Position numbers and translations under genes: made by a program. The notes beneath the pieces were generated by a model that saw nothing but the letters and a program-made list of their open reading frames with translations, made no database searches and was not told the origin of the DNA. Below, piece by piece: positions 9,484 through 28,087 of a stretch of 64,000 bases of DNA; the stretch's first letter is position 1; the number at the start of each line of letters is the position of its first letter. Source of the stretch: a plasmid; sequence record NZ_CP044080.1, one strand, 5' to 3'.

Positions 9484-11324
9484 GATGCCGCCGCGACCCT
9501 GCCGCGCCCCCGGCCCCCGACCCGTTCCTGCGCGCGGTCGAAGGCGGCGGCGGCATCGGCTAGGGCAGAGGCCACATCGTCGACGATGCCCTGTGGCACG
9601 CGGTCGTGTTCCACCAGATCCTCGAGCCGGCGATGCCGCAGGTCCAGGCCCACCGGCACCGGCAGGTGTTCGGGGACCAGCGCCCCGGCGGCATAGTCGC
9701 GATACTTGATGCGGTCGCCGTGGACCGCGTCCTCGTGCCCTTCAAAGGTGATCAGCCCGACCGGAATCCCATAAGCCTGGCAGGTGATGTGGACATGCAT
9801 GGCGCTGGTCAGAACCGCGTCATAGCCGGCCAGGCGCTGGATCAGGTCCAGGATCTCGGCCCGGCCGGCGCGCAGGATCGACAGCTCGTCCACCGGCTCG
9901 GGCAGGCGCAGCGGGATCGAGCGGTGGGCGAAATGGCGCACCAGCGCCAGCCGCCCGTTGGTCGAGGCCGGGCGCGGAACCGGAAACAGCCGCGGCAGCA
10001 CCACCGCCGGGTCGCCGAAGCGTTCGATCCGGGGCCCGCCGGCCAGTGCCACCGCCTGCGCGGTATGCGGCCCCCGGACCGAAATGTATTGCGCATCGGG
10101 CGGAAGCGCCGTGTCGGCGCGGCTGATGCCGGTGCCCACGACGATGGTCGATCCCTGTGCGAACCGCCCGACCGAGCCGACGGCCATCAGATGGGGCGCT
10201 GCGCCGGGTTCGTCGTGGCGCTGGTGGACGACGGGCCGGCCGGTCGCCGTGGCCAGGATCAGGGGCGACAGCCAGTCGCCATAATTGCCGGGATAGGGCT
10301 TGTCCCACCAGTGCAGCCGCAGCGGCGCGCCCGGGCCGGCGCCATAGTCCAGGAAGGCCTGCGCCGCCCCGATCACCGCCTGGTCCGCGGGCCCGAGCAG
10401 GCGGCGTGCGCTGGCGGCCGCGATGCGCGTCCGGACCTGGGCGGCGTCCCCTTCGCGCGCGTCATGGATGATGCGGTAGATGCTGCCTGGGGACAGGCCC
10501 TGCGGCCGGGGCTGGCTGGGCGAGAGGTATTCGGTAAAGCCGATCCGGTCCGACAGCCGGCGCAGCGGCACCGAAAGCCCGTCGGGCAGGGCGCCCTGCA
10601 CCTGCCTGGCCGTTTCCAGGGCCAGCGCGCGCATTCCGCGCGACCGCGCCTGCCGGGCGGGCGTCGCGCGTGCGCCCGGCTGCCGGCTGTGCTGCGCGGC
10701 CTTGCCCTTGAAAGCCGCCACATTGCCGCTGGCGCCGAAGCAGAAGAACGGCCGCTGCCCCGCCTCGGCCGCGCGTCCGACCACCATGGTTGCGGGGATC
10801 ATCTGAAAGCTCAGCCGGTCGGCGTTCTTGCGCCAGGCTTCCTCGAAGAAATAATCGTCGGTCGCGCGCAGGGAAATGCTTTCGCAGGCCAAGTTGGCGT
10901 CGTGGATATAGGCGCGCGCGGCGGGCGTCGCGTTGATCCCCCAGAAGCACGGTTCCCAGAACCGGGCGCTGTTGGCATAGCCGATCCGCATGGGATGGCC
11001 GAAGCCGCGCTGAAAGCCGATGATGTCGGCCGAAAAGCCCGCGACGAAGCCGGGCAGATAGTCGATATCGCAGTCCACGTCGATCCAGAACACGCGGCTG
11101 CCGGGATTGTCCTGGCAGACCCCGTGCAGGAAGGGGATCTTGCGGCGGCAGATCTCCAGCCACTCCTCGCCCTCGGCCTTTTCGACGCGGGCGATGTGGT
11201 GGCGGATGCCCAGCCGGTCCAGCGATTGGCGCAGCCGGTCGGCCGCCCCCGCATAATAGTCGTCCGGCGTGTGGAACGAGCAGAACAGGACATCCGTCCC
11301 GGTGGTTTCCTGATGATCGCGCAA
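9480..11324 (-). CDS. Bifunctional capsule-modification protein. N-terminal nucleotide-sugar-transferase-like domain plus a C-terminal polysaccharide pyruvyl-transferase-like domain.
   Basis: C-terminal half matches CsaB/WcaK-type pyruvyl-transferase motifs (YPGNYGDWLSP...; AVLTSAMHVHITCQAYGIPVGLITFEG). N-terminal half has a DxD-like VFWIDVDCDIDY. 614 aa. Confidence 0.55.
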   Translation of the reverse strand: MRDHQETTGTDVLFCSFHTPDDYYAGAADRLRQSLDRLGIRHHIARVEKAEGEEWLEICRRKIPFLHGVCQDNPGSRVFWIDVDCDIDYLPGFVAGFSADIIGFQRGFGHPMRIGYANSARFWEPCFWGINATPAARAYIHDANLACESISLRATDDYFFEEAWRKNADRLSFQMIPATMVVGRAAEAGQRPFFCFGASGNVAAFKGKAAQHSRQPGARATPARQARSRGMRALALETARQVQGALPDGLSVPLRRLSDRIGFTEYLSPSQPRPQGLSPGSIYRIIHDAREGDAAQVRTRIAAASARRLLGPADQAVIGAAQAFLDYGAGPGAPLRLHWWDKPYPGNYGDWLSPLILATATGRPVVHQRHDEPGAAPHLMAVGSVGRFAQGSTIVVGTGISRADTALPPDAQYISVRGPHTAQAVALAGGPRIERFGDPAVVLPRLFPVPRPASTNGRLALVRHFAHRSIPLRLPEPVDELSILRAGRAEILDLIQRLAGYDAVLTSAMHVHITCQAYGIPVGLITFEGHEDAVHGDRIKYRDYAAGALVPEHLPVPVGLDLRHRRLEDLVEHDRVPQGIVDDVASALADAAAAFDRAQERVGGRGRGRVAAAS

Positions 11325-12418: not shown

Positions 12419-12817
12419 GGCAGGTTCCTCCCTCTGGGGCCAAACCCGCGGAGAAAGGCCGGGTTCCCGGGCAAGGCGTGCTGCGGTCACGCGGAAGTGA
12501 TGTCTGCCGCGGTCGACTGCCGTGGGGCAGGGGGCAATCCCTTGATTCCGTTGGACCGGCGTGGTCCGGCCTTCTGCGGGCCTGCGCCGCGCCGGGACCA
12601 AGCGAAAGGAAATCAAAGGATTGGACGTTCATCCCGTGGCTTTTCCAGCCACGCCTGATCGGCGGTGGGGCGGGCACGAACCCGCCGACAGCCGCCGGCT
12701 TTTGTCTGGGCCTGGGAATCGTCATGGACGCAGGCGCCTTCACGCATTAGGGAGAATTGGAAAAACCCTGCGCGCCTGACACCCGCCTGCGCGCACAAGA
12801 ACCGGACAGAGTCGAGC

Positions 12818-13597
12818 GTGCAAGCACAAGGACCAAGGGAAAACGCGGCCTCGCGTGTCGCGACCGTCAGGCCACTTCAGATCAGGGGTCGCTTTTTCAC
12901 GGCGATCGCGCTGCAACCCGCGGGGCCGGTCGACGACCGCTTTCTTGAGGCGCTGGACGCCAAGCTGCGCGAGACGCCGGCCTTTTTCGAGAACGCCCCG
13001 CTGGTCATCGACCTGGAACAGTCCCACGGCCTGGACGACCCACGCGAGCTGATGCTGCTGGCGCAGGAATTGCGGGCGCGCAAGCTGTCGGTCTTTGGCA
13101 TCCAGCATGGCACGCCCCAGCAGGTGGCGGCCGCGGCCTCGGCCGGGCTGATCGCCCTGCCGGGCGGGCGCAGCGTTCCCGTCGAACAGGTGGCGGCGCG
13201 TGCCGAAAGCCGTGGCCGGAAAGCCGGGCAGGGGGGACGCGATGCTCCGGGCGAGGCCCCGGCCCCCGCGCCGGCCAAGATGATCACCCAGCCCGTGCGC
13301 TCGGGCCAGACGGTGCTGGCCGAGCAGGGCGATCTGGTCATCGTGGGCCCGGTCAGTTCCGGGGCCGAGGTCATCGCTGCGGGCAACATCCACATCTATG
13401 GCCGGCTGCGCGGCCGGGCGCTGGCGGGCGTCATGGGCGACACCACCGCCCGCATCTTCTGCCACGCGCTCGACGCCGAGCTGCTGGCCATCGCCGGGCT
13501 TTACCTGACCAGCGAGAATCTGGCGGCGGACGTGCCGCGTCACTATGTGCAGGCGTTCCTGGACGGCGAAAGCCTGCGTGTCGAAGCCCTCAAGTAA
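12818..13597 (+). CDS. minC: Septum site-determining protein MinC.
   Basis: MinC C-terminal beta-helix dimerisation region ([31 protein letters not shown]). Start assigned to the GTG at 12818; start uncertain. A 400-bp leader lies upstream. Confidence 0.75.
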
Positions 13598-13618
13598 CAC
13601 AGGATAAGGAATCGTTTC

Positions 13619-14437
13619 GTGAGCAAGGTCATCGTAGTCACATCGGGCAAGGGCGGCGTCGGCAAGACGACCTCCTCCGCTGCCATCAGCGCAGGGCTCG
13701 CGATGCGCGGGCACAAGACGGTCGTGATCGATTTCGACGTGGGCCTGCGCAACCTGGACATGATCATGGGCTGCGAACGCCGCGTGGTGTTCGATTTCAT
13801 CAATGTGATCCAGGGCGACGCCAAGCTGAAACAGGCCCTGATCAAGGACCGCCGGCTGGAAAACCTGTATGTCCTGCCGACCTCGCAGACCCGCGACAAG
13901 GACGCCCTGACCCAGGAAGGCGTCAAGGCCGTGCTGGACGAGCTGCGCGAGGACTTCGACTATATCGTCTGCGACAGCCCCGCCGGGATCGAGCGCGGCG
14001 CCCATCTGGCGATGTATTACGCCGACGAGGCTGTGGTCGTGACCAATCCCGAGGTCTCCTCGGTGCGCGACAGCGACCGGGTACTGGGGCTGCTGAACTC
14101 CAAGACCTTCGTGGCCGAAAAGGGCGATGGCAGCGCGGTCAAGGCGCAGCTTCTGCTGACCCGCTTCGACCCCGCCCGCTCGGCCAAGGGCGAGATGATG
14201 AGCGTCGAGGACGTCCTGGAGATCCTGGCCATCCCGCTTTTGGGCATCATCCCGGAAAGCACCACCGTGCTGAAGGCCTCGAACGAGGGCACGCCGGTCA
14301 TCATGGATGAGACCTCGGCCGCGGCCAAGGCCTATGCCGATGCCGTGGGCCGGCTGGTCGGCGAACAGATCGCGCTGCGCACCAGCCCGGAACAGCGGCG
14401 CGGCTTCTTCCAGCGGCTGCTGGGGCGGACGGCCTGA
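13619..14437 (+). CDS. minD: Septum site-determining ATPase MinD.
   Basis: Deviant Walker A GKGGVGKTT, 272 aa, highly MinD-like throughout. Confidence 0.95.
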   Translation: MSKVIVVTSGKGGVGKTTSSAAISAGLAMRGHKTVVIDFDVGLRNLDMIMGCERRVVFDFINVIQGDAKLKQALIKDRRLENLYVLPTSQTRDKDALTQEGVKAVLDELREDFDYIVCDSPAGIERGAHLAMYYADEAVVVTNPEVSSVRDSDRVLGLLNSKTFVAEKGDGSAVKAQLLLTRFDPARSAKGEMMSVEDVLEILAIPLLGIIPESTTVLKASNEGTPVIMDETSAAAKAYADAVGRLVGEQIALRTSPEQRRGFFQRLLGRTA

Positions 14438-14438
14438 C

Positions 14439-14708
14439 ATGTTCGGTTCGCTTTTCCGCCAACGCAAGCCCGGCTCGGCCCAGACCGCCAAGGAGCGCCT
14501 GCAGATCCTGCTGGCCCATGAGCGCGCCATCGGCGGCTCGAGCCCCGATTTCCTGCCGCTGCTGCAACGCGACATCCTCGAGGTCGTGCGCCGCCACCTC
14601 GAGATCGACAGCGACGCCGTCGACGTCAAGCTCGAGCGCAGCGACGATCTGTCGAGCCTGGAGATCAACATCGAACTGCCCGGATCGAAGTCCCGGTCAG
14701 CCGTCTGA
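14439..14708 (+). CDS. minE: Cell division topological specificity factor MinE.
   Basis: 89 aa, MFGSLFRQRK...KERLQILLAHER. ATG lies 1 nt after the minD stop. Confidence 0.9.
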   Translation: MFGSLFRQRKPGSAQTAKERLQILLAHERAIGGSSPDFLPLLQRDILEVVRRHLEIDSDAVDVKLERSDDLSSLEINIELPGSKSRSAV

Positions 14709-14857: not shown

Positions 14858-14934
14858 TCGGAGCGTAGCGCAGCCTGGTAGCGCACCTGCTTCGGGAGCA
14901 GGGGGTCGGAGGTTCGAATCCTCTCGCTCCGACC
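14858..14934 (+). tRNA. tRNA-Pro, anticodon CGG.
   Basis: Manual cloverleaf. Acceptor stem CGGAGCG/CGCTCCG, D-arm GCGC-AGCCTGGTA-GCGC, anticodon stem CCTGC/GCAGG with loop TTCGGGA, T-arm GGAGG-TTCGAAT-CCTCT, discriminator A, CCA encoded. Confidence 0.85.
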
Positions 14935-15182
14935 AGTTTTGCGGTGTTCTGTGGCACATAGTTCTGCCTTTTCTGTCGGGCAGTCTGCCTCTCGGGCTTC
15001 TCAGCGTAACGAAAGCGGACGGTCAACGGTCGGCGCAACGGCGACGCGAAGAGCCCTTAGCGGACGGTCGCAAAGCGACAAACAATCGCCCCATAACGGT
15101 CTCTACTCGATGCCGTCGAGTTTCCGCGTCAGGGCCTCCTGTGAACCGCCCCGGGTTTACCGGAGAGTTTCTGGTTCAATGA

Positions 15183-16108
15183 TTAGGCTGCTTTTGCGGC
15201 GGCGTTCAAGCTTGTGTAGAATTCCTCCTCTGCTTCGTTCGGTGTGACGTAACCGATGGCGCTGTGCAGGCGCGTCTTGTTATACCAGTCGACCCACTTC
15301 AGGGTTTCCCACTCGACTTGACCCACGGATTTCCAAGGGCCGAGGAACTTGATGACCTCGGTCTTGAACAGGCCGATGATGCTTTCAGCCAGAGCGTTGT
15401 CATAGGAATCACCGACGCTGCCGACCGAGGTGTCGATGCCCGCCTCGGCCAGCCGCTCGGTATATCGGATCGAGAGATATTGGCTGCCCCGGTCGCTGTG
15501 ATGGATCAGCTTGTCAGCCTCGGACGGCGCGCGCTGGCAGATGGCCTGATTCAGAGCGTCGAGGACGAAACCGGTGGTCATCGAAGTCGAGACGCGCCAG
15601 CCGACGATCTTGCGGGCGAAGACGTCGATCACGAAGGCCACATAAACCATGCCCTGCCAACTTGAGACGTAGGTGAAATCGCTGACCCACAGCTGGTTCG
15701 GCATGTCTGCCACGAAGACCCGGTTCACCTTGTCGTCCGGACAGGGTTGGGCCGCATCGGGGTTGGTCGTGACGACCTTCTTGCCGCGCACAACGCCTTG
15801 CAACCCCATGACCTTCATCAGCCGCTCCACTGTGCAACGGGCGATGTCGCACCCTTCGCGGCGCAACTGGTGCCAAACCTTACGCGCGCCATATCGGCCT
15901 CTGCTGCCGTCGAATATCTGCTTGATGGCAGTCATGTCCTTCTGGTCCTGCCTGGCCCGATCCGATGCCAGGGTGGGATCACGCTCCACAGCCTTGAAAC
16001 TGTAGAACGTCGATGGTGCGATCCCCAGAACCCGGCAGATCGGCCCGACACCAAAGACGCCACGGTGATCGTCGAGAAACGCGATCATTTGCGGAACGGG
16101 CGGTCGAG
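15183..16108 (-). CDS. IS3-family transposase OrfB (DDE catalytic / integrase core domain). Separated from orfA by the nested IS110.
   Basis: Identical to orfB of copy 2. Integrase-core motifs (HSDRGSQYLS...). The annotated ORF acquires 12 extra N-terminal codons reading into the IS110 end. Confidence 0.85.
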
Positions 16109-16120
16109 TATCCGTCTTGG

Positions 16121-17059
16121 TCAAGGGCGGTCAGGCAGCCAATCTCGCCTCTCGCGCAGCAAGGTGTTTGCAAGGATGATGATGCGCCGCATGATGGCGG
16201 TAATGGCGACTTTCTTCGCTTTGCCGGCCTTTAGCAGCTGCTGATACTTGTCGTGGAGGTCCCGGTTGAAACGAATGGCGACAAGTGCGGGCATGTAGAT
16301 CGCGCGCCGAATTGATGACCGACCGCCGGTGATCCGCTCCTTGCCCTGCCACTTTCCAGATTGCTGCGTCATGGGCGCAAGCCCGGCGAGAGCGGTGATC
16401 TTCTTGCCCTCGAGGTGCCCAAGTTCCGGCATGTCGATCAGCATGGTGGTCGCGGTCAGACGACCAATCCCCGGAATGGTCATCAAACGGCGGATGCGCT
16501 CTTCAAGGGTGCCTCGCTGCCTGGCGATCTGCGCGATGACCTCATCAAGCGCTTGGATATCGGCACCAATGTCCTCAATGCGGCGACCAAGCTGTTCTCG
16601 CACGAGCGGGTTCAGTGCAGTAGCAAGCCGCGTCTTCGCGGTCACCTGATCTTTGATCAAAGCGCGGCGGGCAGTCAGCAACTCTCTGAGATCATGAACA
16701 TCTTCGCCTTCAACGACTTGAGGCGTCAGGTCAAGCACAACGCCCATGCGCGCCAGCATTCTGGCGTCGACGCTATCAGTCTTTGCCAATCGTCCGATTG
16801 CTTGCGCAAAGCGCCGCGCCTGCTTTGGATTGACTTTGATGAAAGGCAGCCCCGCCAGACCCAGATGCCGCTCAAGCCCCCGGTGATAGGCGCCGGTCGC
16901 CTCGAAGACGATGAGAACGTCTTCCTCCTTTCCCAGCCAGGCGCACAATTGCCCGAAACCTTCAGGCGTATTGGGCAGGCAGCACGCCTCCGTCCGGGAA
17001 TGCCAGAATGCGTCAAGACGGTCTTTCGACACGTCAATGCCGATGGTATCCTTGGCCAT
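16121..17059 (-). CDS. IS110-family DEDD transposase / recombinase.
   Basis: N-terminal DEDD RuvC-like domain (IGIDVSKDRL). C-terminal Transposase_20 motif (IPGIGRLTATTMLIDMPELGHL...LAGLAPMTQQSGKWQGK). Confidence 0.9.
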   Translation of the reverse strand: MAKDTIGIDVSKDRLDAFWHSRTEACCLPNTPEGFGQLCAWLGKEEDVLIVFEATGAYHRGLERHLGLAGLPFIKVNPKQARRFAQAIGRLAKTDSVDARMLARMGVVLDLTPQVVEGEDVHDLRELLTARRALIKDQVTAKTRLATALNPLVREQLGRRIEDIGADIQALDEVIAQIARQRGTLEERIRRLMTIPGIGRLTATTMLIDMPELGHLEGKKITALAGLAPMTQQSGKWQGKERITGGRSSIRRAIYMPALVAIRFNRDLHDKYQQLLKAGKAKKVAITAIMRRIIILANTLLRERRDWLPDRP

Positions 17060-17264
17060 CTTTTCTTCCTACCTATGCTTGTCGTTCGGGCCCGCAGCCC
17101 ACGTATCCGTTCAGGTCGTTAGAAAAGACGGGGGCTCGTCAAACTCGACCGCGGTCCTTCAAGACCAAGCTCCGCACGGCGCCACCCCCGCCGCTGCCCC
17201 GCAGTTTGCGGTGCTGGGCAGCGGCTCCCTTTTGCCTCAGGAGCCTCAAATCTCATAAGACAAG
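17060..17264 (-). ncRNA. Candidate IS110-family bridge RNA (non-coding left end).
   Basis: 205-bp non-coding end with strong stem-loops (CCGCTGCCCCGCAGTTTGCGGTGCTGGGCAGCGG). Minus-strand RNA contains GCGGUCGAG, identical to the 9 nt of target immediately left of the insertion point. A 6-nt segment complementary to the right flank (CTCCGC) lies about 20 nt away. Confidence 0.4.
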
Positions 17265-17582
17265 CTCCGCCGCAGCGAAATATGCGCTGGCCTTCTTCAG
17301 GATCTCATTGGCGGTGCGAAGCTCCCGCACCTCGCGTTCCAGTTCCTTGATCCGGTCCTTCTCCGCGCTCGTCAGCCCGCCGCGCTCTCCGCGGTCACGC
17401 TCCGCCTGCTGGCACCAGACGCGCAGACTGTCGGGAGAGCAGCCAAGCTTCGGCGCGATCGCCTTGTAGGCCGCACTGTCGCTGGCGTAGTCGCCGCGGT
17501 TCTCGCGGAAAAGCCGAACACCGCGTTCGCGCAGTTCGGCCGGATAGGCGGGGGTGAATCTTTGCTTCGTCATAGGGCTCAT
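17253..17582 (-). CDS. IS3-family transposase OrfA (HTH). The 3' end is altered by the nested IS110, and the frameshift fusion to orfB is abolished.
   Basis: Identical to orfA of copy 2 up to AAAEL, then reads into IS110 (..VL*). Confidence 0.8.
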   Translation of the reverse strand: MSPMTKQRFTPAYPAELRERGVRLFRENRGDYASDSAAYKAIAPKLGCSPDSLRVWCQQAERDRGERGGLTSAEKDRIKELEREVRELRTANEILKKASAYFAAAELVL

Positions 17583-18066: not shown

Positions 18067-18474
18067 TTACCCATGATGATCCGGATCAATATATCGCCGG
18101 AATGCGATGAGGATTGCCGCGTCATTTTTCCCGAATCGGTCAGCGGGAGCGCCGTCGAAATCGACGTGAGCGCGGGTCAGCCAATAGCAGAGCCTCAGGT
18201 TGCTGATGCGAGCCGGTCTGAGCCTCAGGATGTCACGGACGATATCAAAGACACCGCCGTTCGCCGTGTCGAACTGGAACAGTGGCAACCTGATCTCACC
18301 ATTCTGGACCAGGGTGATGACGGTATCGTCTCGGGCCATGGCCTGGATGGCGGCTTCCGGGTCATCCGTTTCGATGCGCAAGAGCGCGCAGGCCTGCGAC
18401 GCATCGATCAGGTCGATGCTGGCGAGAAGGCGTTCCTCGACACCGGGCTTGTCGGTGGAATTTTCCGGCGGCAT
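18067..18474 (-). CDS. DUF2384 (Xre / MbcA / ParS antitoxin-like toxin-binding domain) protein. Last gene of the five-gene operon.
   Basis: C-terminal block RLCYWLTRAHVDFDGAPADRFGKNDAAIL resembles the DUF2384 antitoxin signature. AAGGGGAA RBS. ATG lies 1 nt after the TAG stop of the upstream gene. Confidence 0.45.
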   Translation of the reverse strand: MPPENSTDKPGVEERLLASIDLIDASQACALLRIETDDPEAAIQAMARDDTVITLVQNGEIRLPLFQFDTANGGVFDIVRDILRLRPARISNLRLCYWLTRAHVDFDGAPADRFGKNDAAILIAFRRYIDPDHHG

Positions 18475-18475
18475 T

Positions 18476-19295
18476 CTATTTCCCCTTCGAAACGGCTCGG
18501 TTCCGCATCTCATCGAACGTAAATCCGGCGGGCAGCGTGACCTCGCTGACGGAGAGGTAGCCGCCAATGCATTCCGGGCAGACATGCCGGCCCTCCGGCA
18601 GCCATTTGCGCACGGCCTCTCCTATGGTGACAATTGTCTCGTTCGTCGCAGCTACGACAATCCGCCCGTTGCGCACCACGGCCTGCCCCGAGACCAAGGC
18701 CGGATCGAGGATCCGGCCGCAGCCCGCGCACAGCACCGTGGGCCAGGCGCGGCCCGGTTCCACCTGATCCCAATGCGCATTCACCGGGAGTCTGGCGGCG
18801 CGGCGCAAGATTTCCGGCAGCATTACCGGCCGGAAATCCCAGACATCCGCACCGACGTTGACGGAGTTACGGCTGCCCTGCCAGTTCTGGTGGAACATGC
18901 CCGAAAAGTTGCAAACCTTGGTGCCGTGCGCCGGGCCAGGTGATCATGGGATAGTGGCAGAGAAACAGCCGCCGCTTGTCGACGACGATGTCGGCAGTTT
19001 CCGCGACGCTGTCCCAGGGCAGGTCGCAGACCCAGTCGTCGTCATGGTTGCCCCGGATCAGGTGCCTGCGGCCCGGCAAGGCATGGAAGATGCCGCGAAC
19101 CTCGCGCCGTTGCGCATCGGTGGCCCTTCCCGCGGTGAAATCTCCCAGGATCCACAGATCGTCATCGGGTCCAACCCGGGCCCGGCACTCGGCCAGCTGG
19201 TGGGCGTTCATCGTGGCCACCTCCGGGAACGGGCGGTCGCAGAAGCGGATGATATTGCCGTGCGAATAGTGCGGATCGGCGGTGAACCAATGCAT
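18476..19295 (-). pseudogene. Calcineurin-like metallophosphoesterase with a C-terminal Cys-rich zinc-ribbon extension. Single-nucleotide frameshift near 18888 (possibly a sequencing error).
   Basis: Motifs DPHYSHGN, LGDFT, GNHDD in frame A. GHV(H)QNWQGSRNSVNVG is restored by deleting one C in GTTCCACCA. Frame B carries CAGCGR...CPEC. GGAGGG RBS. ATG lies 1 nt after the upstream stop. Confidence 0.6.
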
Positions 19296-19296
19296 G

Positions 19297-19770
19297 TCAG
19301 CCCTCCCTTCCGGAGGCGGTCCGGTCCGCCGCGTCGATCTCGCGCACCCACGTGATATATTCGGTCAGGAGCTTCTGAAGCAGTTCCGGATCATCGTTGT
19401 TGGTGAATCCGGGAAGAGTGAACCGGATGGCGGCGGCTTCGGCTTTCTTCCCGTTCAGGGATTCCGCCAGTTCCGCTGCGAGCGCGTCGATGGACCGGCC
19501 GAGCCGATACCAGCGCGATGCGGTCCGGGCCCAGCCGGCTTCGGGATCGATGGCGATGAGCTGCGAGGTGTGGATGCTTGCATTGCCGAGAAGCGGGTGA
19601 TCGGTCACCTCGCCCCAAAGCATCGTATGCCTGTCCGGCGAAATTGCCGCTTTCCAGTTGGACAGGACCGGCGCTTGCGCGAGGTCCGCCTCGGACGGCC
19701 CGGCCTCGGCGGCGGCGATGGCGCGCAGCACCTTGTCGAACCAAGCGCGGTCGCTGGGCGAGAGTTTCAT
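19297..19770 (-). CDS. Hypothetical protein, 157 aa, in the operon.
   Basis: GGAGAA RBS 7 nt upstream of the ATG. Tight coupling to the downstream metallophosphoesterase. No recognisable domain. Confidence 0.55.
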   Translation of the reverse strand: MKLSPSDRAWFDKVLRAIAAAEAGPSEADLAQAPVLSNWKAAISPDRHTMLWGEVTDHPLLGNASIHTSQLIAIDPEAGWARTASRWYRLGRSIDALAAELAESLNGKKAEAAAIRFTLPGFTNNDDPELLQKLLTEYITWVREIDAADRTASGREG

Positions 19771-19865
19771 GATGGTTTCTCCGGTTTGATGGCATGAAGG
19801 GGGCGGCTACGGCGATGCCGCAGGCGCGTCGGATTCCGGGAGGTATGAAAAAGGGAGGGGCCGGC

Positions 19866-20975
19866 TCAGTGGAGCGTCGGCCCCTGTTCCAGATCGGCGG
19901 CGCGTTGCAGCATGCGGGCCGCGACCCGAAGGCTGGGCTGATGCTGCCGCAGGGAGGGATGGCAGAGGATCTCGCAGATCGCCTCGATGGAGGTCGCGGA
20001 CAGGTTGCGCTTTTCGCCCTCGCGGCGCACGAAGGCCGTCAGTTCGGCGAGGGTGAGATAACGCAGCCGGATCGGCGGGCAGCGGCTCAGCAGCGGTTCC
20101 GGCAGCAGCCGATAGTCGTTGGATGTCAGCACCCAGATCACCCAGCTCATGTCGAACTTCACCTGGTAATAGGGGCAGCTCCAGCGCTGCGCGGTCAGCG
20201 GCTCCAATAGCGGCAGCAGCGCCTCGGCCAGACCGAAGGCCTGCCCGCTCGTGGATGTGGCCCGACCGGCCTTTTCGATCTCGTCCACAATCATGACCGG
20301 ATTGGCGATGCGGCTTTGCAGGACGGTTTCGATCAGTCGACCGGGGTAGGACCCACCCCAGCCACGTTGCGAACCGACAATGCCGAATGAGGCATTCTCG
20401 CCGGTGGCCTCGATCACCGTGGTTGACGTGGCCAGAAGTTCGCCAAGACGGCGGGCATAGCGGCTTTTGCCAATGCCGGGCGGGCCGTCGAGCAGGAGCG
20501 GCGGCATCCGAAACCCCGGCCAGCCCTCGCGCACCGAGCGGCGCATCGCGTGCCAGACCACCTCGGTGGCCGGGGCCATCCAGGACATGTCCCCGTGCAG
20601 GCCCGCGGCCAGTTCGTCGGCGTGATGCTCGTTCCGGATCCGGATCAGCCGGGCGCCGTCTTTCAGAACTTCAAGCCGCTCGCGATCATCGCGCTTCAGA
20701 TGTTCGAGGCCGGAAGCCGCCTTGCGGCGCTCCAGGAGCCGTTTGACCCGGCGCTTGATGCGGGCCTCGTCGTCATCGCTGAACCTGATGATACCCATCA
20801 GATCCGCGTCCGAGATATTGCTTGGCGCGCCGGCTTCGTCGGGCGGGGCCGGAAGATCCGGAGGGATCCTCCTGCAGCGCAGCTTGCGCAGATGCCGCAT
20901 GAAGCGGGTTTCGAGTTCAATGCGGCCCTCGTTCGGGCTGAAGAAACGGGCTTCTATGAAGGGGATGGTAGACAT
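19866..20975 (-). CDS. Lon-type AAA+ ATPase module without a protease domain (369 aa), with an N-terminal region of about 150 aa of unknown function.
   Basis: Walker A GPPGIGKS and Walker B MIVDEIEKAG. Extended similarity to the LonA AAA+ core (YPGRLIETV.., VIWVLTSNDYRLLPEPLLSRCPPIRLRYLT versus Lon VMFVATSN..IPAPLLDRMEVIRLSGYT). Confidence 0.65.
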   Translation of the reverse strand: MSTIPFIEARFFSPNEGRIELETRFMRHLRKLRCRRIPPDLPAPPDEAGAPSNISDADLMGIIRFSDDDEARIKRRVKRLLERRKAASGLEHLKRDDRERLEVLKDGARLIRIRNEHHADELAAGLHGDMSWMAPATEVVWHAMRRSVREGWPGFRMPPLLLDGPPGIGKSRYARRLGELLATSTTVIEATGENASFGIVGSQRGWGGSYPGRLIETVLQSRIANPVMIVDEIEKAGRATSTSGQAFGLAEALLPLLEPLTAQRWSCPYYQVKFDMSWVIWVLTSNDYRLLPEPLLSRCPPIRLRYLTLAELTAFVRREGEKRNLSATSIEAICEILCHPSLRQHQPSLRVAARMLQRAADLEQGPTLH

Positions 20976-21050
20976 GGGATTACTCCGGACATGTGGGGAC
21001 TATCGGCTGGGAGGGGCCCGGCCGGGGAAGACGCGTTGGGAGAATGGCGA

Positions 21051-21839
21051 TCAGGCGCCGGGGAAGATCAGGCCGCGCAGCAGCAGTTCTGCCTCACCGC
21101 CCTCGGGCACCTCGTCGGGATAGCCGAGAGAGACGTTGACAACCGGCGCGCCGCGGATGCGGGCCGAGAGCGGCCGGTGGGTATGGCCGAAGAACCAGTA
21201 ATCAGGTCGGTGCGCCTCGATCCAGCCGTCAAGATCCGAGGCGAAGGCCGGACTGATGCCGGAGATCGGACCGGAGACCGCCGGGCTTGGGGCGTGATGG
21301 GTGATGACAATGGTCTGTCCGCGCCAGGGCTTGGCCATCTCCCGCGTCAGCCAGTCGAGGTGATCGCGGTGGATCTCGACGGTATCCTCGGGGCGGATGA
21401 GCCTGCCCTCCGCCCGGCAGATCCGGGCGTAGTCCAGCATCCCCATCCCGGCGTGGGCCATGGCCGCCTCCGGATCGCCGGTCAGTGCGAAGTCGGTCCA
21501 GAGCGTGCAGCACAGCAGGCGGCAGCTGCCGAAGGTCAAAACCTGCTTCTGGGCAAGGCTCGCCCCGGCCTCCGTTACGATCCGGACCAGAACATTGTCG
21601 TCGAGCGTGGCGCCGTAATAGTCATGGTTACCGGGAATGACCCAGATCCGGGCGGGCGAGACCAGCCGCCCGAGCCGGGACAGTGCCAGGGGCCAGCTCC
21701 GCCGCGGATCATTGGCCAAGTCGCCCGCGATGATCAGCGCGTCTAGGTCGCGCAGCACGGGCACGATGCCGGCGAATGGATCGCGCCCGGCGTCGGCCCA
21801 GAGGTCGAGATGCAGGTCGGCGGTGATCAGGATGTTCAT
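21051..21839 (-). CDS. Calcineurin-like metallophosphoesterase (262 aa). First gene of the operon.
   Basis: All five MPP motifs: ADLHLD, AGDL, GNHD, ITHH, GHTH. Start is the ATG at 21839 (MNILITADLH). The longer annotated ORF upstream is an extension. Confidence 0.8.
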   Translation of the reverse strand: MNILITADLHLDLWADAGRDPFAGIVPVLRDLDALIIAGDLANDPRRSWPLALSRLGRLVSPARIWVIPGNHDYYGATLDDNVLVRIVTEAGASLAQKQVLTFGSCRLLCCTLWTDFALTGDPEAAMAHAGMGMLDYARICRAEGRLIRPEDTVEIHRDHLDWLTREMAKPWRGQTIVITHHAPSPAVSGPISGISPAFASDLDGWIEAHRPDYWFFGHTHRPLSARIRGAPVVNVSLGYPDEVPEGGEAELLLRGLIFPGA

Positions 21840-22071: not shown

Positions 22072-22422
22072 TCAGAGGAACGAGGGTTTGCGCACCGAGG
22101 CCCCCGTCACGGCGCGCCAGTCGATCCCCTCGAACAGCGCATCGAACTGCACCTTGCTCAGCACCACCGGCCCGGCCTGCGGCTTCGGCCAGGTGAACCG
22201 CCCGCCGTTCAGGCGCTTCATGGTCAGCACCAGCCCGGTGCCGTCCCAGACCAGCAGTTTCAGCCGGTCGGCGCGACGGGAGCGAAACACGTAGATGGCG
22301 CCATCGAAGGGATCGAGCTCGAAATGGTTGGCGACATGCGCCGCCAACCCGTCCATCCCCTTGCGAAAATCGACCGGTTCGGAGGCGAGGAAAATGCGGT
22401 AACTGCCGGCGGGGGAAATCAC
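22072..22422 (-). CDS. tnpB: IS66-family accessory protein TnpB (orf2). Orphan: no tnpC follows.
   Basis: YRIFLASEPVDFRKGMDGLAAHVA...LKLLVWDGTGLVLTMKRLNGGRFTWP matches the IS66 Orf2 consensus. Confidence 0.8.
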   Translation of the reverse strand: MISPAGSYRIFLASEPVDFRKGMDGLAAHVANHFELDPFDGAIYVFRSRRADRLKLLVWDGTGLVLTMKRLNGGRFTWPKPQAGPVVLSKVQFDALFEGIDWRAVTGASVRKPSFL

Positions 22423-23006
22423 TGCGAAGCCCTCAAGAGGGTAGGGCGTGGCCGGCAGGCATGCATCAGGCGAACAGTCCGAGCAAATTCCGAAAGCAGA
22501 CTTTCCAGCATCCTTGGGTCGATGGGCATATAGCCTGCGGCCTCGATCATGCCTATCTGGCTTGCGATGCCGTTCAAATGCGAGGGTGCCCGTGACCGTT
22601 GCTGGGCGAAGGGAAGTCCCAGACGGATCAAGCCCTGCAAGCTGCGGGCCCAGCCGTCGGATCGCTCAATCGCCAGCAGTCGCGGTGTCAACACGGAGCG
22701 GCACCCGAGGCGGGGATCATCCATCAGAACTCCCCAAAGCGCAGGAAACCCTTGCATGGAAAGGCAGGGCTGCCAGGCCTCAAGGACGATCGCGTGTGCG
22801 AGATCGTTGGGGCAGGGCGGGTCCGCGCAAAGCAAGGCAAGAATGCGCCCGAAATGCGTTTCGGTAATCGACTCGGGGGCTGTTGTGACCTTTGAGTGGC
22901 CTTGAAGGGATGGCGAAAGTTGCTCGGCAGCCGGAGCGCGTGAGTTGATAGAACAGGACAGCATCTTCAGCGGACCTTTCAGCATAACCTGCTGTTCAGG
23001 GAACAA
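22419..23006 (-). CDS. Hypothetical protein translationally coupled to IS66 tnpB (ATGA overlap). Possibly a divergent IS66 orf1-like accessory protein.
   Basis: ORF of 195 aa whose stop overlaps the tnpB start. No recognisable motifs. Confidence 0.35.
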   Translation of the reverse strand: MFPEQQVMLKGPLKMLSCSINSRAPAAEQLSPSLQGHSKVTTAPESITETHFGRILALLCADPPCPNDLAHAIVLEAWQPCLSMQGFPALWGVLMDDPRLGCRSVLTPRLLAIERSDGWARSLQGLIRLGLPFAQQRSRAPSHLNGIASQIGMIEAAGYMPIDPRMLESLLSEFARTVRLMHACRPRPTLLRASQ

Positions 23007-23365
23007 AGGTTCTCCGACGCAGCAGCGACGACATTGTAGCTGGCCAGCCAGTGCTCGGAGGCTATCGCTGGTCAGTGCCTAAGGTGTTGCTGAAATGTTC
23101 CCGCGGCGTCAATCGGGCCGAACGAGTATCGCAGTGGCCTCGGCCTCTGGTTGGAAGGGAAAGCGAGAAAGTCGGTCTTGACTGTAAGAGATTGAAATAT
23201 ACCAACATCGATCAGGTCGACGGTCCAATGGTAAACATTTGGCCAACCAATGGTCGCCGAAACGGGCCAAATGGCTTCTTTTTGGCCGTCGGTTCACAAA
23301 TGCCCATGATAGATCGGTATTGTCTGTGAATCAACCCATGAGTATCACGATAGAAATAATGAAGA

Positions 23366-24108
23366 TTATGTAAATAACATTGCTTTGCACCTCTTCGTCT
23401 CAACTAACGAAGCGAGCATCATGCTGTGGAGCGACCCGCATTCTAGTATCAGCCTGGGCTGCCCGCAGCGCAATGGATTGTCATCGGCATCGGTGTAGTT
23501 CTGCCTGCTCTCCGGCTCGTCGATGTAGCCCGACCGGATGTGGTTCCCGTTAAACTCGATGGTGTCGCCGTGGATCATCGATCCGGGCCACTGAACGGTC
23601 TGGTCGCGCCATCGGAAGGAGGGCAGGACGATCGCGATCTGCCAGGGCGATCGGCGGATTTAGCGAGGGAAATAGCCCTCTGGCCCGCAGGCCGTTGCTC
23701 ATACAATTCGCAGCGTACTGCTCAGTCCCAAAAAGTCATCTTCGAGAGCGGCCCGTTTGCGACCTCGTTCTTTTACGCCTTAACGGAGGAAAGGCTGCCG
23801 CGATCTGCCTCGAGGCGTCACGCTCAGAAGATACTCAGCAATGCCCCTGAAATTTCAGGCATGCGCGGGATCGAGCCAGGCCCTCTGATCAGGCGGCCAT
23901 AGCCATGGTCGCAGGCACGGACCTCAACCGTATGCGGCGGCTGCGCCCCATTCGTCGCTTGCGCGCTCAGCGTGCTCTCGGCCACGTTCGAGAGATTCAG
24001 CGCGCCGAGATAGTCAGGCGGCGTATGTGAGTGCTGGCCGTAATCTCCCCAAAACGGCTGGATGAAAAATCCCCATTCCGGCGCTTTTGCCGATGATCCG
24101 GGGGGCAT
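23366..24108 (-). pseudogene. Decayed gene remnant(s) in a lower-GC segment. Broken reading frames, 5' end removed by IS21-A.
   Basis: Protein-like stretches in different frames separated by stops (..FIQPFWGDYGQHSHTPPDYLGALNLSNV.. and ..MIHGDTIEFNGNHIRSGYIDEPE..). GC content near 50% against about 67% elsewhere. Confidence 0.25.
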
Positions 24109-24125: not shown

Positions 24126-24193
24126 AAGCGCAGAATTCCCCCTGCTGATGCCATGGGAAAGGCGCGCAGGTGGTTCGATTGAGGGAGATTGTG

Positions 24194-25418
24194 ATGATCT
24201 TGGAGTTGAGGCGGCAAGGGCTTGGAGTCAGCGCGATTGCGCGACAGACCGGGCTCGATCGCAAGACGGTCCGGAAGTATCTCGCCCAGGGGCTCGAGGC
24301 GCCGGTCTATGGCCCGCGCGCCCGGGGTGAACGACTGGCGGAGCAATTCAGGGCCTATCTTTCCGAACGAGTCGAGGCCTTTTCGGGTCTCTCGGCGCGC
24401 AGGCTGCATCGAGAGGTCCGGGCGATGGCTATAAGGGCGCCTATTCCTCGCTGACGGAATATCTGCGGCTGATCCGGCCCGCCGCCCCAAGGCAATTCGA
24501 GCGGCGCTTCGAGACGGCGCCGGGCCAACAGGCGCAGGTCGATTTTGCCGAGTTCCAGGTGGAATTCGCCGTCGAGCCGGGCATCCTGCGCAAGGTCTGG
24601 CTGTTCAGCATGGTGCTCGGGCACAGCCGCTGGCTCTGGGGACGGTTCTGCCCGAACCAGACGCTGGAAACGGTGATGCGCTGCCACATCGCCGCATTCG
24701 ACGCCATGGGCGGGGTCTGTCGCGAGATACTCTATGATCGGATGAAGACCGCCGTCATCGGCGAAGATGCTGCGGGGGTGGTGACCTACAACGCGTCCCT
24801 GGTGGCCTTGCTGGGGCATTACGGTTCGGCGCCCCGGGCCTGCCAGCCCTACCGGGCCAAAACCAAGGGCAAGGTCGAGCGGCCCTTCCGCTATGTGCGG
24901 CAGGACTTCTTCCTCGGCCGCAGCTTCCAGGATCTCGACGATCTGAACGCCCAATTCGATGAATGGCGCCTGACCATCGCCAATCCCCGTCTGCATGCCA
25001 CGACCCAGAAGATCGTGGACGCGCATTTTGAGGAAGAACGCCCCCAGCTGCTGCCCCTGCCGCCCCGTCCCTATGAGGCGGTTCTGACCGTCGAGCGGCG
25101 GATCAGCCAGGAAGGCATGGTCGCCGTGGGCGGCAACCAATACAGCGTTCCCGACACCACCCGGCGGCGCATCGTCGAGGTCCAGAACCACCCTGCCGAG
25201 GTCAGGATCTTCGAGGATGGCGCATTGATCGCCAGCCACCCGGTGCTGGAAGGCAAGAACCAGCGCCGGGTCGATCCCAGCCATCGCAAGCCGGTCCTGA
25301 CCGCGCAGCGCGCCCTGCAACTGCCATCCGTGACCGAGGCTGCGGTCGCCCGCCGACCCTTGGCCTTCTACGAGGCAGTCGGCAGCGTTTGGCAGGCGCG
25401 CCGGAGCATCGCCCATGA
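24194..25418 (+). pseudogene. istA: IS21-family transposase IstA, disrupted by at least two frameshifts.
   Basis: N-terminal HTH (MILELRRQGLGVSAIARQTGLDRKTVRKYL) in frame 2. Middle part (PGDGYKGAYSSLTEYLRLIRP..QVDFAEF.., DDE core) in frame 1 after a shift near 24420. The frame does not terminate at the ATGA overlap with istB. Confidence 0.7.
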
Positions 25419-26260
25419 TCCCGGTCATCGAGAGGATCCGCCAGAGCCTGGTCTGCCTTCACATGGCCCGCGCCCTCGAGACGCTGGATCAGATCCTCAG
25501 CCGGCTGGAGAAAGGCGAGATCAGCGCCATCGAGGCCATCGACGAACTCCTGGCCGAGGAACTGAGCCTGCGCGAAGGTCGCCGCATCGGCGTTGCCCTG
25601 CGCACCGCCCGCCTGATGCCGATCAAGACGATGGAAAGCTTCGACTTCTCCTTCCAGCCGTCGCTTGACCGGAACCGCATCATGGCACTCGCTCAGCTCG
25701 AGTTCATCCGCCGTGCGGAGGTCCTGCACTTCCTCGGTCCGCCTGGGACGGGGAAATCCCACCTTGCCACAGCCATCGGCGTTGCCGCCGTGAAGGCCGG
25801 GCGAAGCGTCTATCGCTGCACCCTCGCAGAGCTGATCGAGGCCTTGGCCAAGGCCGAGCGAGAGGGACGTCTCCCCGAAAAAATCCGCTTCTATGCCCGG
25901 GCCTCCCTGCTGATCGTCGACGAGATCGGATACCTGCCCATCACCACGGGCGGGGCCAACCTGTTCTTCCAACTCGTCAATGCCCGCTATGAAAAGGGTG
26001 CCATGATCCTGACCTCCAATCGCGGCTTTGCCGAATGGGGCGAGATCTTCGGGGATCCCGTGGTCGCGACCGCACTTCTGGATCGGCTGCTGCATCACGC
26101 TGTCGTCATCCAGATCGAAGGGGCCAGCTACCGCCTGCGGGCGCATGCCGATCTGATCCCGGAACACACCCGCTCACATGCCGCAATCACTCCGCCGCCG
26201 CCGCCAAAGCGCCGTGGTCGGCCGCCCAGAAATGGAGGCGCCCATCACCTGCAAGGCTGA
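25415..26260 (+). CDS. istB: IS21-family helper ATPase IstB.
   Basis: Walker A GPPGTGKSHLA and Walker B LLIVDEIGY, plus the IstB C-terminal motif. Confidence 0.9.
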   Translation: MIPVIERIRQSLVCLHMARALETLDQILSRLEKGEISAIEAIDELLAEELSLREGRRIGVALRTARLMPIKTMESFDFSFQPSLDRNRIMALAQLEFIRRAEVLHFLGPPGTGKSHLATAIGVAAVKAGRSVYRCTLAELIEALAKAEREGRLPEKIRFYARASLLIVDEIGYLPITTGGANLFFQLVNARYEKGAMILTSNRGFAEWGEIFGDPVVATALLDRLLHHAVVIQIEGASYRLRAHADLIPEHTRSHAAITPPPPPKRRGRPPRNGGAHHLQG

Positions 26261-26561: not shown

Positions 26562-26802
26562 TCATGGCTGGGTCAAGACATTGCTGGCCTCCTTCTTTTT
26601 TCGGGCGGCGGCTTCGATGCTGGCCTTGAAGCGGAAGCTGTCGTTTCCAGTTTCCAGGATGTGGCAGCGGTGGGTGAGGCGGTCGAGGAGCGCCGTGGTC
26701 ATCTTGGCGTCGCCGAAGACCGTGGCCCATTCGCTGAAGCTGAGATTGGTGGTGATGATGACGCTGGTGCGCTCGTAAAGCTTGCTCAGAAGATGGAAGA
26801 GC
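26562..26802 (-). pseudogene. istB: IstB C-terminal fragment (IS21-B), fused to the IS3 end.
   Basis: [50 protein letters not shown] is the IstB C-terminal region. The annotated ORF starts inside the IS3 inverted repeat. Confidence 0.75.
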
Positions 26803-26843
26803 TGAACCGCCCCGGGTTTACCGGAGAGTTTCTGGTTCAATGA

Positions 26844-27749
26844 TTAGGCTGCTTTTGCGGCGGCGTTCAAGCTTGTGTAGAATTCCTCCTCTGCTTCGTT
26901 CGGTGTGACGTAACCGATGGCGCTGTGCAGGCGCGTCTTGTTATACCAGTCGACCCACTTCAGGGTTTCCCACTCGACTTGACCCACGGATTTCCAAGGG
27001 CCGAGGAACTTGATGACCTCGGTCTTGAACAGGCCGATGATGCTTTCAGCCAGAGCGTTGTCATAGGAATCACCGACGCTGCCGACCGAGGTGTCGATGC
27101 CCGCCTCGGCCAGCCGCTCGGTATATCGGATCGAGAGATATTGGCTGCCCCGGTCGCTGTGATGGATCAGCTTGTCAGCCTCGGACGGCGCGCGCTGGCA
27201 GATGGCCTGATTCAGAGCGTCGAGGACGAAACCGGTGGTCATCGAAGTCGAGACGCGCCAGCCGACGATCTTGCGGGCGAAGACGTCGATCACGAAGGCC
27301 ACATAAACCATGCCCTGCCAACTTGAGACGTAGGTGAAATCGCTGACCCACAGCTGGTTCGGCATGTCTGCCACGAAGACCCGGTTCACCTTGTCGTCCG
27401 GACAGGGTTGGGCCGCATCGGGGTTGGTCGTGACGACCTTCTTGCCGCGCACAACGCCTTGCAACCCCATGACCTTCATCAGCCGCTCCACTGTGCAACG
27501 GGCGATGTCGCACCCTTCGCGGCGCAACTGGTGCCAAACCTTACGCGCGCCATATCGGCCTCTGCTGCCGTCGAATATCTGCTTGATGGCAGTCATGTCC
27601 TTCTGGTCCTGCCTGGCCCGATCCGATGCCAGGGTGGGATCACGCTCCACAGCCTTGAAACTGTAGAACGTCGATGGTGCGATCCCCAGAACCCGGCAGA
27701 TCGGCCCGACACCAAAGACGCCACGGTGATCGTCGAGAAACGCGATCAT
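26844..27749 (-). CDS. IS3-family transposase OrfB (DDE integrase core).
   Basis: rve integrase-core motifs. Overlaps orfA in the -1 frame. Confidence 0.9.
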   Translation of the reverse strand: MIAFLDDHRGVFGVGPICRVLGIAPSTFYSFKAVERDPTLASDRARQDQKDMTAIKQIFDGSRGRYGARKVWHQLRREGCDIARCTVERLMKVMGLQGVVRGKKVVTTNPDAAQPCPDDKVNRVFVADMPNQLWVSDFTYVSSWQGMVYVAFVIDVFARKIVGWRVSTSMTTGFVLDALNQAICQRAPSEADKLIHHSDRGSQYLSIRYTERLAEAGIDTSVGSVGDSYDNALAESIIGLFKTEVIKFLGPWKSVGQVEWETLKWVDWYNKTRLHSAIGYVTPNEAEEEFYTSLNAAAKAA

Positions 27750-28087
27750 TTGCGGAACGGGCGGTCGAGCTCCGCCGCAGCGAAATATGCGCTGGCCTTC
27801 TTCAGGATCTCATTGGCGGTGCGAAGCTCCCGCACCTCGCGTTCCAGTTCCTTGATCCGGTCCTTCTCCGCGCTCGTCAGCCCGCCGCGCTCTCCGCGGT
27901 CACGCTCCGCCTGCTGGCACCAGACGCGCAGACTGTCGGGAGAGCAGCCAAGCTTCGGCGCGATCGCCTTGTAGGCCGCACTGTCGCTGGCGTAGTCGCC
28001 GCGGTTCTCGCGGAAAAGCCGAACACCGCGTTCGCGCAGTTCGGCCGGATAGGCGGGGGTGAATCTTTGCTTCGTCATAGGGCTCAT
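27746..28087 (-). CDS. IS3-family transposase OrfA (HTH).
   Basis: HTH and leucine-zipper-like region (ELEREVRELRTANEILKKASAYFAAAEL). Confidence 0.9.
   Translation of the reverse strand: MSPMTKQRFTPAYPAELRERGVRLFRENRGDYASDSAAYKAIAPKLGCSPDSLRVWCQQAERDRGERGGLTSAEKDRIKELEREVRELRTANEILKKASAYFAAAELDRPFRK

Follow-up and report, generated by a model that had tools for sequence, protein, structure and literature searches.

A Lon-type ATPase gene block on plasmid NZ_CP044080.1, a likely degenerate copy of a modular mobile-element and defence-island block of Rhodobacterales

Tn7-like transposons carry defence systems as variable cargo. The canonical IS66-family insertion sequences (IS) of Paracoccus are 2.7-2.8 kb long, have 8-bp target duplications and contain no ATPase gene (PMC3281130). 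The locus that we compare here with these elements lies in a 64,000-nt stretch of plasmid record NZ_CP044080.1 (the window), where a block of minus-strand genes at positions 18067-21839 encodes two calcineurin-like metallophosphoesterases (MPP1 and MPP2), a Lon-type AAA+ ATPase, a DUF6634 protein (DUF6634a) and a small helix-turn-helix (HTH) protein (P5). With a probability that we put at roughly 60%, this locus is a degenerate copy of a modular block that circulates among Rhodobacterales in mobile elements and defence islands and that is composed of a backbone and an MPP2-P5 cargo pair rather than forming one five-gene machine. In our best reading the backbone comprises tnpB, the ATPase gene and DUF6634, often with MPP1.

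Relatives of the block resemble the IS66 family (ISPpa5a, ISPpa7 and IS679 type) in that their tnpA (HTH orf1) overlaps tnpB (PF05717) and in their same-strand DDE transposase gene tnpC, GTAAGCG/GTAACCG termini and 8-bp target duplications, but between tnpB and tnpC they have, unlike that family, 1 to >9 kb of passenger genes that start with the ATPase gene; the window copy differs further in retaining tnpB alone. With the defence-carrying Tn7-like transposons they share the character of mobile elements with variable anti-phage cargo, and ATPase homologues also adjoin tnsABC-tniQ operons, but the carrier in the relatives of the block is an IS66-type element. In full-text literature searches neither DUF6634 nor this block architecture came up in any paper, and no paper was found that addresses the role of the IS66 Orf2 protein (TnpB); the passenger backbone headed by the ATPase gene in this IS66-family transposon derivative is, as found here, undescribed.

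IS66-type elements and defence cargo around ATPase homologues

We compared 87 loci, drawn from a scan of one genome per species (80 loci), four plasmid loci and the window, and grouped the neighbouring genes across them by clustering all open reading frames (ORFs). The scan loci are almost all from Rhodobacterales; several genomes hold more than one copy and many loci are at contig ends. About 25 loci show the gene order tnpA-tnpB-ATPase. In these, the genomes become homologous abruptly, some 80 bp ahead of tnpA, at GTAAGCGTTGCATCTGACCCC or GTAAGCGGTGCAAAGACCCC, with an unrelated flank in each genome, a pattern that is characteristic of an IS66 left inverted repeat; such repeats begin with GTAAGCG or GTAACCG. 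Right repeats that match the left ones were found in three loci, all of them with perfect 8-bp direct repeats (GACCAATC, GAAGGAAG and GGCCCATT), and the presence of both repeats together with target duplications identifies these elements as genuine transposition products. Because tnpC follows the ATPase gene on the same strand at a distance of 7.3-10 kb, the ATPase gene is the first passenger between tnpB and tnpC; two elements flanked by target duplications, L025 and L053, show no tnpC. In the clade of the window, loci L003, L004 and L013 each show the repeat GTAACCGGTGCAAAGACCCC followed by tnpA, tnpB, MPP1 and the ATPase gene, with different flanks in each, and L003 and L013, unlike L004, continue with DUF6634, MPP2 and P5. 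The earlier note on this DNA, which was made from the sequence alone, had missed both the IS66 tnpB/DUF6634 head of the block and its nature as an IS66 passenger in these relatives.

One tnpA-tnpB-ATPase element of the IS66 type is 87-96% identical at the DNA level across nine genera (Pseudodonghicola, Sagittula, Mesobaculum, Alloyangia, Phaeobacter, Oceanicella, Chachezhania, Sulfitobacter and a metagenome-assembled genome of Methylocystaceae; loci L033-L036, L038, L082, L025, L028 and L053), which indicates very recent horizontal spread; one comparison over the nine genera gave 90-96%. Most of these copies also carry a type I restriction-modification (R-M) system.

Recognised anti-phage systems were found inside or beside such elements. 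An element bounded by target duplications (L059) contains Lamassu (LmuB 4e-205, LmuA 5e-64), and loci headed by IS66 genes contain type I Zorya (ZorA 7e-240, ZorB 1e-111, ZorD E=0; L016), type I R-M (the L033 group and L037) and PD-T4-10_B (8e-26; L022). Homologues without IS66 genes adjoin CBASS (Cap2 2.6e-154, Cap4 1.2e-158), Gabija (GajB 7e-182), a DRT reverse transcriptase (3e-151), PDC-S06, PDC-S20 and a Hachiman-like helicase. A further scan, of all ORFs with 250 aa or more that lie up to 5.5 kb from the ATPase gene in 52 non-redundant loci and with counts made per family and not per protein, showed defence proteins on both flanks of the ATPase gene, namely GajA, REase_I, DrmD of DISARM, type I and III methyltransferases, PDC-S11 and PDC-S36. 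The presence of these systems around its homologues makes the ATPase family a resident of defence islands, and the anti-phage type of context that had been proposed for the block on its surroundings alone is in this respect borne out. A role of the block itself in defence would be suggested by this genomic context.

In relatives the intact form of the element runs from an IS66 left repeat through tnpA, tnpB, the ATPase-headed passengers (often DUF6634 and/or MPP1) and variable cargo, usually a recognised anti-phage system, to tnpC and the right repeat. In the Paracoccus clade, MPP2-P5 occupies the cargo position and MPP1 stands between tnpB and the ATPase gene. In the window copy, another DUF6634 gene (DUF6634b) has taken the place of tnpA and the left repeat, neither tnpC nor an inverted repeat remains, MPP2 is frameshifted, and IS3, IS110 and IS21 have invaded the surroundings. 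If this architecture holds, IS66-family elements, like Tn7-like transposons, move whole defence systems between genera.

Several observations weigh against the reading of the locus as a degenerate copy of such a block. In about 55 of the 87 loci no IS66 gene lies close to the ATPase gene, so the IS66 link is valid for a large sub-clade and not for the whole ATPase family, and a search for tnpB remnants upstream of the homologues without IS66 genes yielded only two truncated cases. Nor is any of tnpB, DUF6634 and MPP1 nearby in 37 of the 87 loci. For the copies with all five genes, neither a right end nor tnpC was found within 10 kb, and, with defence genes rich on both flanks, a cargo slot strictly downstream of the ATPase gene is not demonstrated statistically. 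None of the five proteins is recognised by PADLOC-DB 2.0, in which we found only partial matches to PDC-M37B (9e-7 over 80 aa) and PDC-S10 (4e-5 over 50 aa); the earlier statement that the combination corresponds to no nameable defence architecture therefore stands. Finally, several copies have frameshifts in MPP1, the ATPase gene, MPP2 or DUF6634, which fit dispensable cargo yet weaken a functional claim for any given copy.

The fixed position of the ATPase gene in these elements could also mean that the ATPase and DUF6634 are an accessory factor of IS66 transposition that remodels or disassembles the TnpC transpososome or chooses targets (compare ClpX in Mu, IstB in IS21 and TnsC in Tn7), with the phosphoesterases and P5 as unrelated passengers. 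Inside the elements flanked by repeats and target duplications, the ATPase gene is always directly behind tnpB at a gap of 1-80 nt; tnpB is under strong selection alongside the ATPase gene, the identities of the two co-vary across loci, and ATPase homologues also stand immediately upstream of Tn7-like operons of a tnsA-like gene, tnsB, tnsC and tniQ. Lon-clade AAA+ proteins, however, are protein unfoldases, unlike the DNA-bound target selectors of IS21, Tn7 and Mu. Moreover, an accessory factor is not expected from the many ATPase loci without IS66 genes nor from the window-like copies that keep the ATPase gene and tnpB intact without a transposase or ends, and the canonical Paracoccus IS66 members transpose without an ATPase gene (PMC3281130). 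We regard this explanation as quite improbable.

At the loci with the Tn7-like operon (L043, L045, L054, L072, L074, L075 and L078; ATPase gene at about 10001-11100, in L072 at 1148-2047), the ATPase homologue is directly upstream of the operon and co-directional with it. The ATPase gene could there be either the attachment-site gene or the first transposon gene; a search for Tn7-like end repeats or TnsB-site repeats on either side of it found none.

Modularity of the block

The ATPase gene is the sole constant gene across the 87 loci. TnpB is encoded near it, directly upstream of the ATPase gene or of MPP1, in 29 loci, IS66 tnpA is near in 25, DUF6634 in 22, MPP1 in 20 (adjoining on the upstream or the downstream side), and MPP2 and P5 in 13 each, and all five genes of the block occur together in 8. 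Plasmids of Paracoccus aminovorans and Ketogulonicigenium vulgare contain the 3.8-kb block at a nucleotide identity of about 85%, and the Ketogulonicigenium copy has the same order of seven genes as the window. The synteny check that the earlier note had asked for thus showed co-inheritance of the block across genera, with constancy confined to the ATPase gene.

Every gene of the block is under purifying selection, with ratios of nonsynonymous to synonymous substitution (dN/dS) of 0.11-0.43 against six relatives (the value for the ATPase of L007 was an alignment artefact and was left out). Synonymous divergence (dS) differs between modules within one genome pair: against Ketogulonicigenium it is 0.12-0.15 for DUF6634b and tnpB and 0.45-0.58 for the ATPase gene and P5. 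Stretches of nucleotide homology end where genes do: in eight loci the limit is within 3 nt of the stop codon of P5, and elsewhere it is directly upstream of MPP1 or of tnpB, or at 23296-23307. These patterns show that the modules of the block have different histories and recombine independently.

The same comparisons bear on the possibility of a single ATP-driven anti-phage or abortive-infection system made up of the five genes, in which the ATPase senses or unfolds a target and unleashes the phosphoesterases while P5 acts as antitoxin. Tight coupling of the genes is what such a system would predict, as are their uniform purifying selection, the defence-island neighbourhoods and the co-inheritance of the block, with about 85% of nucleotides identical, in no fewer than 8 loci of Paracoccus, Ketogulonicigenium, Falsirhodobacter and Paenirhodobacter. 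It is hard to reconcile, however, with the occurrence of the ATPase gene without MPP2 and P5 in 74 of the 87 loci and without MPP1 in 67, with the independent recombination of the modules, with a second P. yeei copy that has an extra 154-aa gene and no MPP1, with the inactivation of MPP2 in the window lineage while the other genes are intact, and with the lack of PADLOC model matches. An integrated system is therefore unlikely, and the combined five-gene module that the earlier note had proposed does not agree with five genes that co-occur in so few loci, have unequal dS and belong to homology blocks that end at gene borders.

The second P. yeei copy (L093; chromosome CP038095, 269,495-285,902) encodes an intact 272-aa MPP2. 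Its extra gene lies between the ATPase gene and DUF6634, three further small co-directional genes follow P5, and an XcyI-type R-M system and a UvrD-like helicase are its neighbours.

Two kinds of neighbourhood recur upstream of ATPase homologues. The class II ribonucleotide reductase gene nrdJ is immediately upstream in 13 loci (L005, L008, L020, L046, L047, L048, L050, L060, L062, L063, L068, L070 and L081), about 320 bp from the ATPase gene or the whole block and in several separate branches of the ATPase tree, and an ABC-transporter operon is the second recurrent upstream neighbour (L026, L041, L057 and L061). Both look like recurrent insertion points of the island. On the downstream side, Tn7-like tnsB/tnsC immediately follow the ATPase gene in 10 loci.

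Proteins encoded by the block

The ATPase had been described as a Lon-type AAA+ protein without a protease and with a novel N-terminal region, and this description holds. Its match to the Lon equivalog model TIGR00763 is restricted to aa 160-308, and the profile of its family, compared with the Protein Data Bank (PDB), aligns with LonA AAA+ modules at 1.7e-19 over aa 156-339, a range that includes the pore-loop aromatic (W206, aligned with the Lon pore-loop Tyr) and the Lon-type 'LLSR' arginine finger region. The protein thus has the AAA+ module of LonA with Walker A, Walker B and pore loop, but it differs from LonA in having neither the S16 protease domain (Ser-Lys dyad) nor the LonA N-domain: the matches cover only aa 156-339 and the polypeptide stops 30 aa beyond the AAA lid. 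Its own N-domain (aa 1-155) is private to the family, with 231 representatives among 1.84 billion sequences, nearly all about 370 aa or shorter and with few longer outliers. Among 14 diverse family members, with identities down to 55%, there is no variation at K170 (Walker A), D231/E232 (Walker B), N286, R298 or W206. Because Walker A and B, sensor, arginine finger and pore-loop aromatic are all invariant, we infer that the ATPase is an active, hexameric remodeller that threads its substrates. Together with DUF6634, and probably also the IS66 Orf2 protein, it would form a backbone module that serves a mobile element or defence island.

MPP1 covers the whole Metallophos profile and has the five calcineurin motifs (DxH, GD, GNHD, H and GHTH) intact in one polypeptide, as the earlier reading had it. 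It matches phrog_1649 at 3e-27 and, weakly (3e-3), cyclic-nucleotide phosphodiesterases of the Rv0805/Icc type, and it may be a second phosphoesterase associated with the ATPase.

MPP2 is present in the window as two ORFs in different frames: a 1-nt insertion within GHxH ('catgTtccac' in the window, 'catg-tccac' in 10 homologues) splits motif V, so that all five motifs stand in one polypeptide only in orthologues. The CxxC...CxxC region that had been noted in MPP2 does lie in the C-terminal fragment, but the gene had been taken as whole. The identical split into 142 and 140 aa recurs in four independent metagenome assemblies (L087-L090) and is therefore a feature of the lineage and not a read error; MPP2 is a true pseudogene, or a split gene, in the window lineage. 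Besides the second P. yeei copy, plasmids of Paracoccus aminovorans and Ketogulonicigenium encode an intact 272-aa MPP2. The reconstructed protein of that length matches phrog_547 (2e-37), PdeM-like TIGR04123 (4.7e-7) and aq_1665 (1xm7; 3e-9), and MPP2 orthologues differ from these PdeM, aq_1665 and PHROG 547 phosphoesterases by a C-terminal extension of about 100 aa with CxxC...CxxC.

These scores of MPP1 and MPP2 all fall far under the equivalog cut-offs, and, unlike the settings of PdeM- and Icc/Rv0805-type enzymes, the block has no ligase, Lhr or SbcC partner. SbcD and Mre11 are matched only at E 0.04-0.085, and SbcCD/Mre11-Rad50 pairs a metallophosphoesterase nuclease with an SMC-type ATPase, whereas the ATPase of the block is of the AAA+ type.

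DUF6634a, which had been listed as a hypothetical protein of 157 aa, is a full-length member of PF20339 (293 bits against a gathering cut-off of 27 bits) and is 33% identical to DUF6634b. The DUF6634 model (predicted local distance difference test, pLDDT, 91) had no analogue in the PDB, and its beta core resembles only small uncharacterised proteins of alphaproteobacterial phages (E 2e-5). DUF6634b, present in L002, L006, L011, L039 and L087 with dN/dS of 0.25-0.30, sits where related loci have IS66 tnpA, and 4 nt of it overlap with tnpB. The interpretation that DUF6634 is IS66 TnpA in a diverged form was ruled out (hhalign probability 0.2%).

The phage-like matches raise the possibility of a phage or housekeeping origin, in which genes for, say, a pair of Ser/Thr phosphatases and a replication or clamp-loader-like ATPase happen to be located in a region rich in IS. 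The PHROG matches of both phosphoesterases and the DUF6634 core would fit such an origin. A comparison with 50,697 phage records, however, gave no DNA match, the ATPase is Lon-like (clamp-loader models match it at 3.7e-5 or weaker), its family is patchy, multi-copy within genomes and found at contig ends, and the genes are carried inside transposons with target duplications. An origin of this kind, named in the earlier note as what would refute its reading, is very improbable.

TnpB and DUF6634b travel with the block in Ketogulonicigenium and other Paracoccus. The dN/dS of tnpB (0.11-0.18) is the lowest of the block, even in pairs in which neither copy has tnpA, tnpC or inverted repeats, and this constraint in copies without transposase genes and ends argues for a use of the IS66 Orf2 protein within the block itself. 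A conserved neighbour, the Lon-like ATPase, and maintenance under selection without a transposase offer a direct experimental handle on Orf2.

P5, which had been called DUF2384-like, has no Pfam match at E<=0.1. In its structural model (pLDDT 88.9) the N-terminal half is a predicted winged HTH of the excisionase/MerR type, the C-terminal part would be a DUF2384-like domain, and the overall fold resembles that of Rv2175c of M. tuberculosis. Two of 19 P5 relatives touch PF09722 at E 0.049 and the P5 of the window does not; P5 would thus be DUF2384-like at the structural or sub-threshold level only and is at most a putative member of the family. P5 further differs from the Xre/MbcA/ParS (DUF2384) antitoxins in its partner: Pfam scans of all neighbours found no RES or ADP-ribosyltransferase (ART-type) toxin gene near it, and its upstream partner is a metallophosphoesterase instead.

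MPP2 and P5 could be a separate toxin/antitoxin-like or abortive-infection-type pair, in which MPP2 would be a phosphodiesterase or nuclease effector and P5 would restrain MPP2 and autoregulate. More specifically, and only tentatively, the ATPase with DUF6634, an exapted IS66 Orf2 protein and often MPP1 might be the core of an undescribed module that accompanies, and possibly services or regulates, anti-phage defence cargo on IS66-type and other mobile elements of Rhodobacterales, with MPP2-P5 as a new phosphoesterase-based toxin/antitoxin or abortive-infection pair. If so, the long-enigmatic Orf2 protein would have a partner and a function that can be tested. Both MPP2-P5 and MPP1 are candidate cargo of a new kind, for defence or for addiction.

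State and surroundings of the window copy

The five co-directional minus-strand frames of the earlier note were found at its positions by inspection of ORFs and sequence, with MPP2 divided into two ORFs and with the unit running on upstream of 21839 into TnpB and DUF6634b on the same strand (Table 1). The block therefore has seven genes, not five. The gaps between the five genes are 75, 95, 1 and 1 nt (the first had been given as 76), and Shine-Dalgarno-like purine-rich motifs (GAGG, GGAG, GGAG, GGGAGGG and AAGGGGA) do precede the starts, by 6-13 nt. P5 and DUF6634 of the window are 100% identical to Paracoccus yeei proteins, and the window copy is P. yeei-like. In the conserved leader upstream of DUF6634b, homology with L002, L006 and L011 begins abruptly, at the border at 23296-23307 given above. 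The leader contains the only two sigma-70-like sites on the minus strand in the region, a number that is not significant (1.2 expected), and promoter and terminator scans gave no excess over shuffled expectation.

The 8-bp target duplication and inverted repeats of the relatives are absent from the window copy: GTAAGCG occurs nowhere in the window, and no inverted-repeat variant within 7 mismatches was found. There is no TnpA match in the window beyond chance, the overlapping slot upstream of tnpB being occupied by DUF6634b, and the sole trace of tnpC is a 40-aa C-terminal remnant upstream of the block. The window copy is thus probably stranded, degenerate and immobile. With one effector gene broken it is of smaller biological weight, and the interest lies mainly in the ATPase family.

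Table 1. Features of the window in and around the block (positions in the 64,000-nt stretch)
Feature	Position	Strand	Evidence or remark
Possible minC	12665-13597		presumed, by sequence recognition
minD	13619-14437		presumed, by sequence recognition
minE, inside ORF	14307-14708		presumed, by sequence recognition
tRNA-Pro(CGG)	14859-14935		
IS3 orfB	15183-16124		element interrupted by IS110
ALIL frameshift pseudoknot	16014-16129		
IS110-family transposase gene	16121-17059		inside IS3
IS3 orfA	17253-17582		element interrupted by IS110
P5, 135 aa	18067-18474	-	HTH and DUF2384-like; Rv2175c-like overall fold (model)
MPP2 C-terminal fragment, 140 aa	18476-18898	-	remainder of phosphoesterase fold and CxxC...CxxC region
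MPP2 N-terminal fragment, 142 aa	18867-19295	-	DxH, GD, GNHD, H; +1 frameshift at about 18893
DUF6634a, 157 aa	19297-19770	-	PF20339 6e-88, 293 bits
Lon-type AAA+ ATPase without protease domain, 369 aa	19866-20975	-	PF00004 5.5e-10; TIGR00763 3e-23
MPP1, calcineurin-like metallophosphoesterase, 262 aa	21051-21839	-	PF00149 6.3e-17
IS66 Orf2-like TnpB, 116 aa	22072-22422	-	PF05717 1.1e-37
DUF6634b (DUF6634 paralogue)	22419-23006	-	PF20339 1.5e-14, 54.5 bits
Conserved leader upstream of DUF6634b	23007-23374	-	homology to L002, L006, L011
Sigma-70-like sites	23374-23347; 23334-23306	-	in leader
IS21 istA	24170-24454 and 24559-25668		apparently split
IS21 istB	25415-26260		
TnpC remnant, 40 aa	26368-26487	-	C-terminal
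IstB C-terminal fragment	26562-26840		
ALIL frameshift pseudoknot	27675-27791		second IS3 copy

The setting agrees with the tRNA-proximal, IS-rich and lower-GC context that had been described. The block is flanked by IS3, IS110 and IS21 and lies 3.1 kb from the tRNA-Pro(CGG) gene, the gap being filled by an IS3 copy that is split by IS110, and G+C content is 0.60-0.65 over 14-30 kb against 0.67-0.72 outside. An Rfam scan of the window returned only a tRNA and the two IS3 ALIL pseudoknots; the split istA may be another frameshifted IS gene. The TnpC remnant adjoins the C-terminal fragment of IstB in a patchwork of IS21 and IS3 debris. Directly before the tRNA gene stand the genes that we take to be minD and minE, with a possible minC ahead of them, and these min genes (12665-14708) mark the conserved edge of the island.

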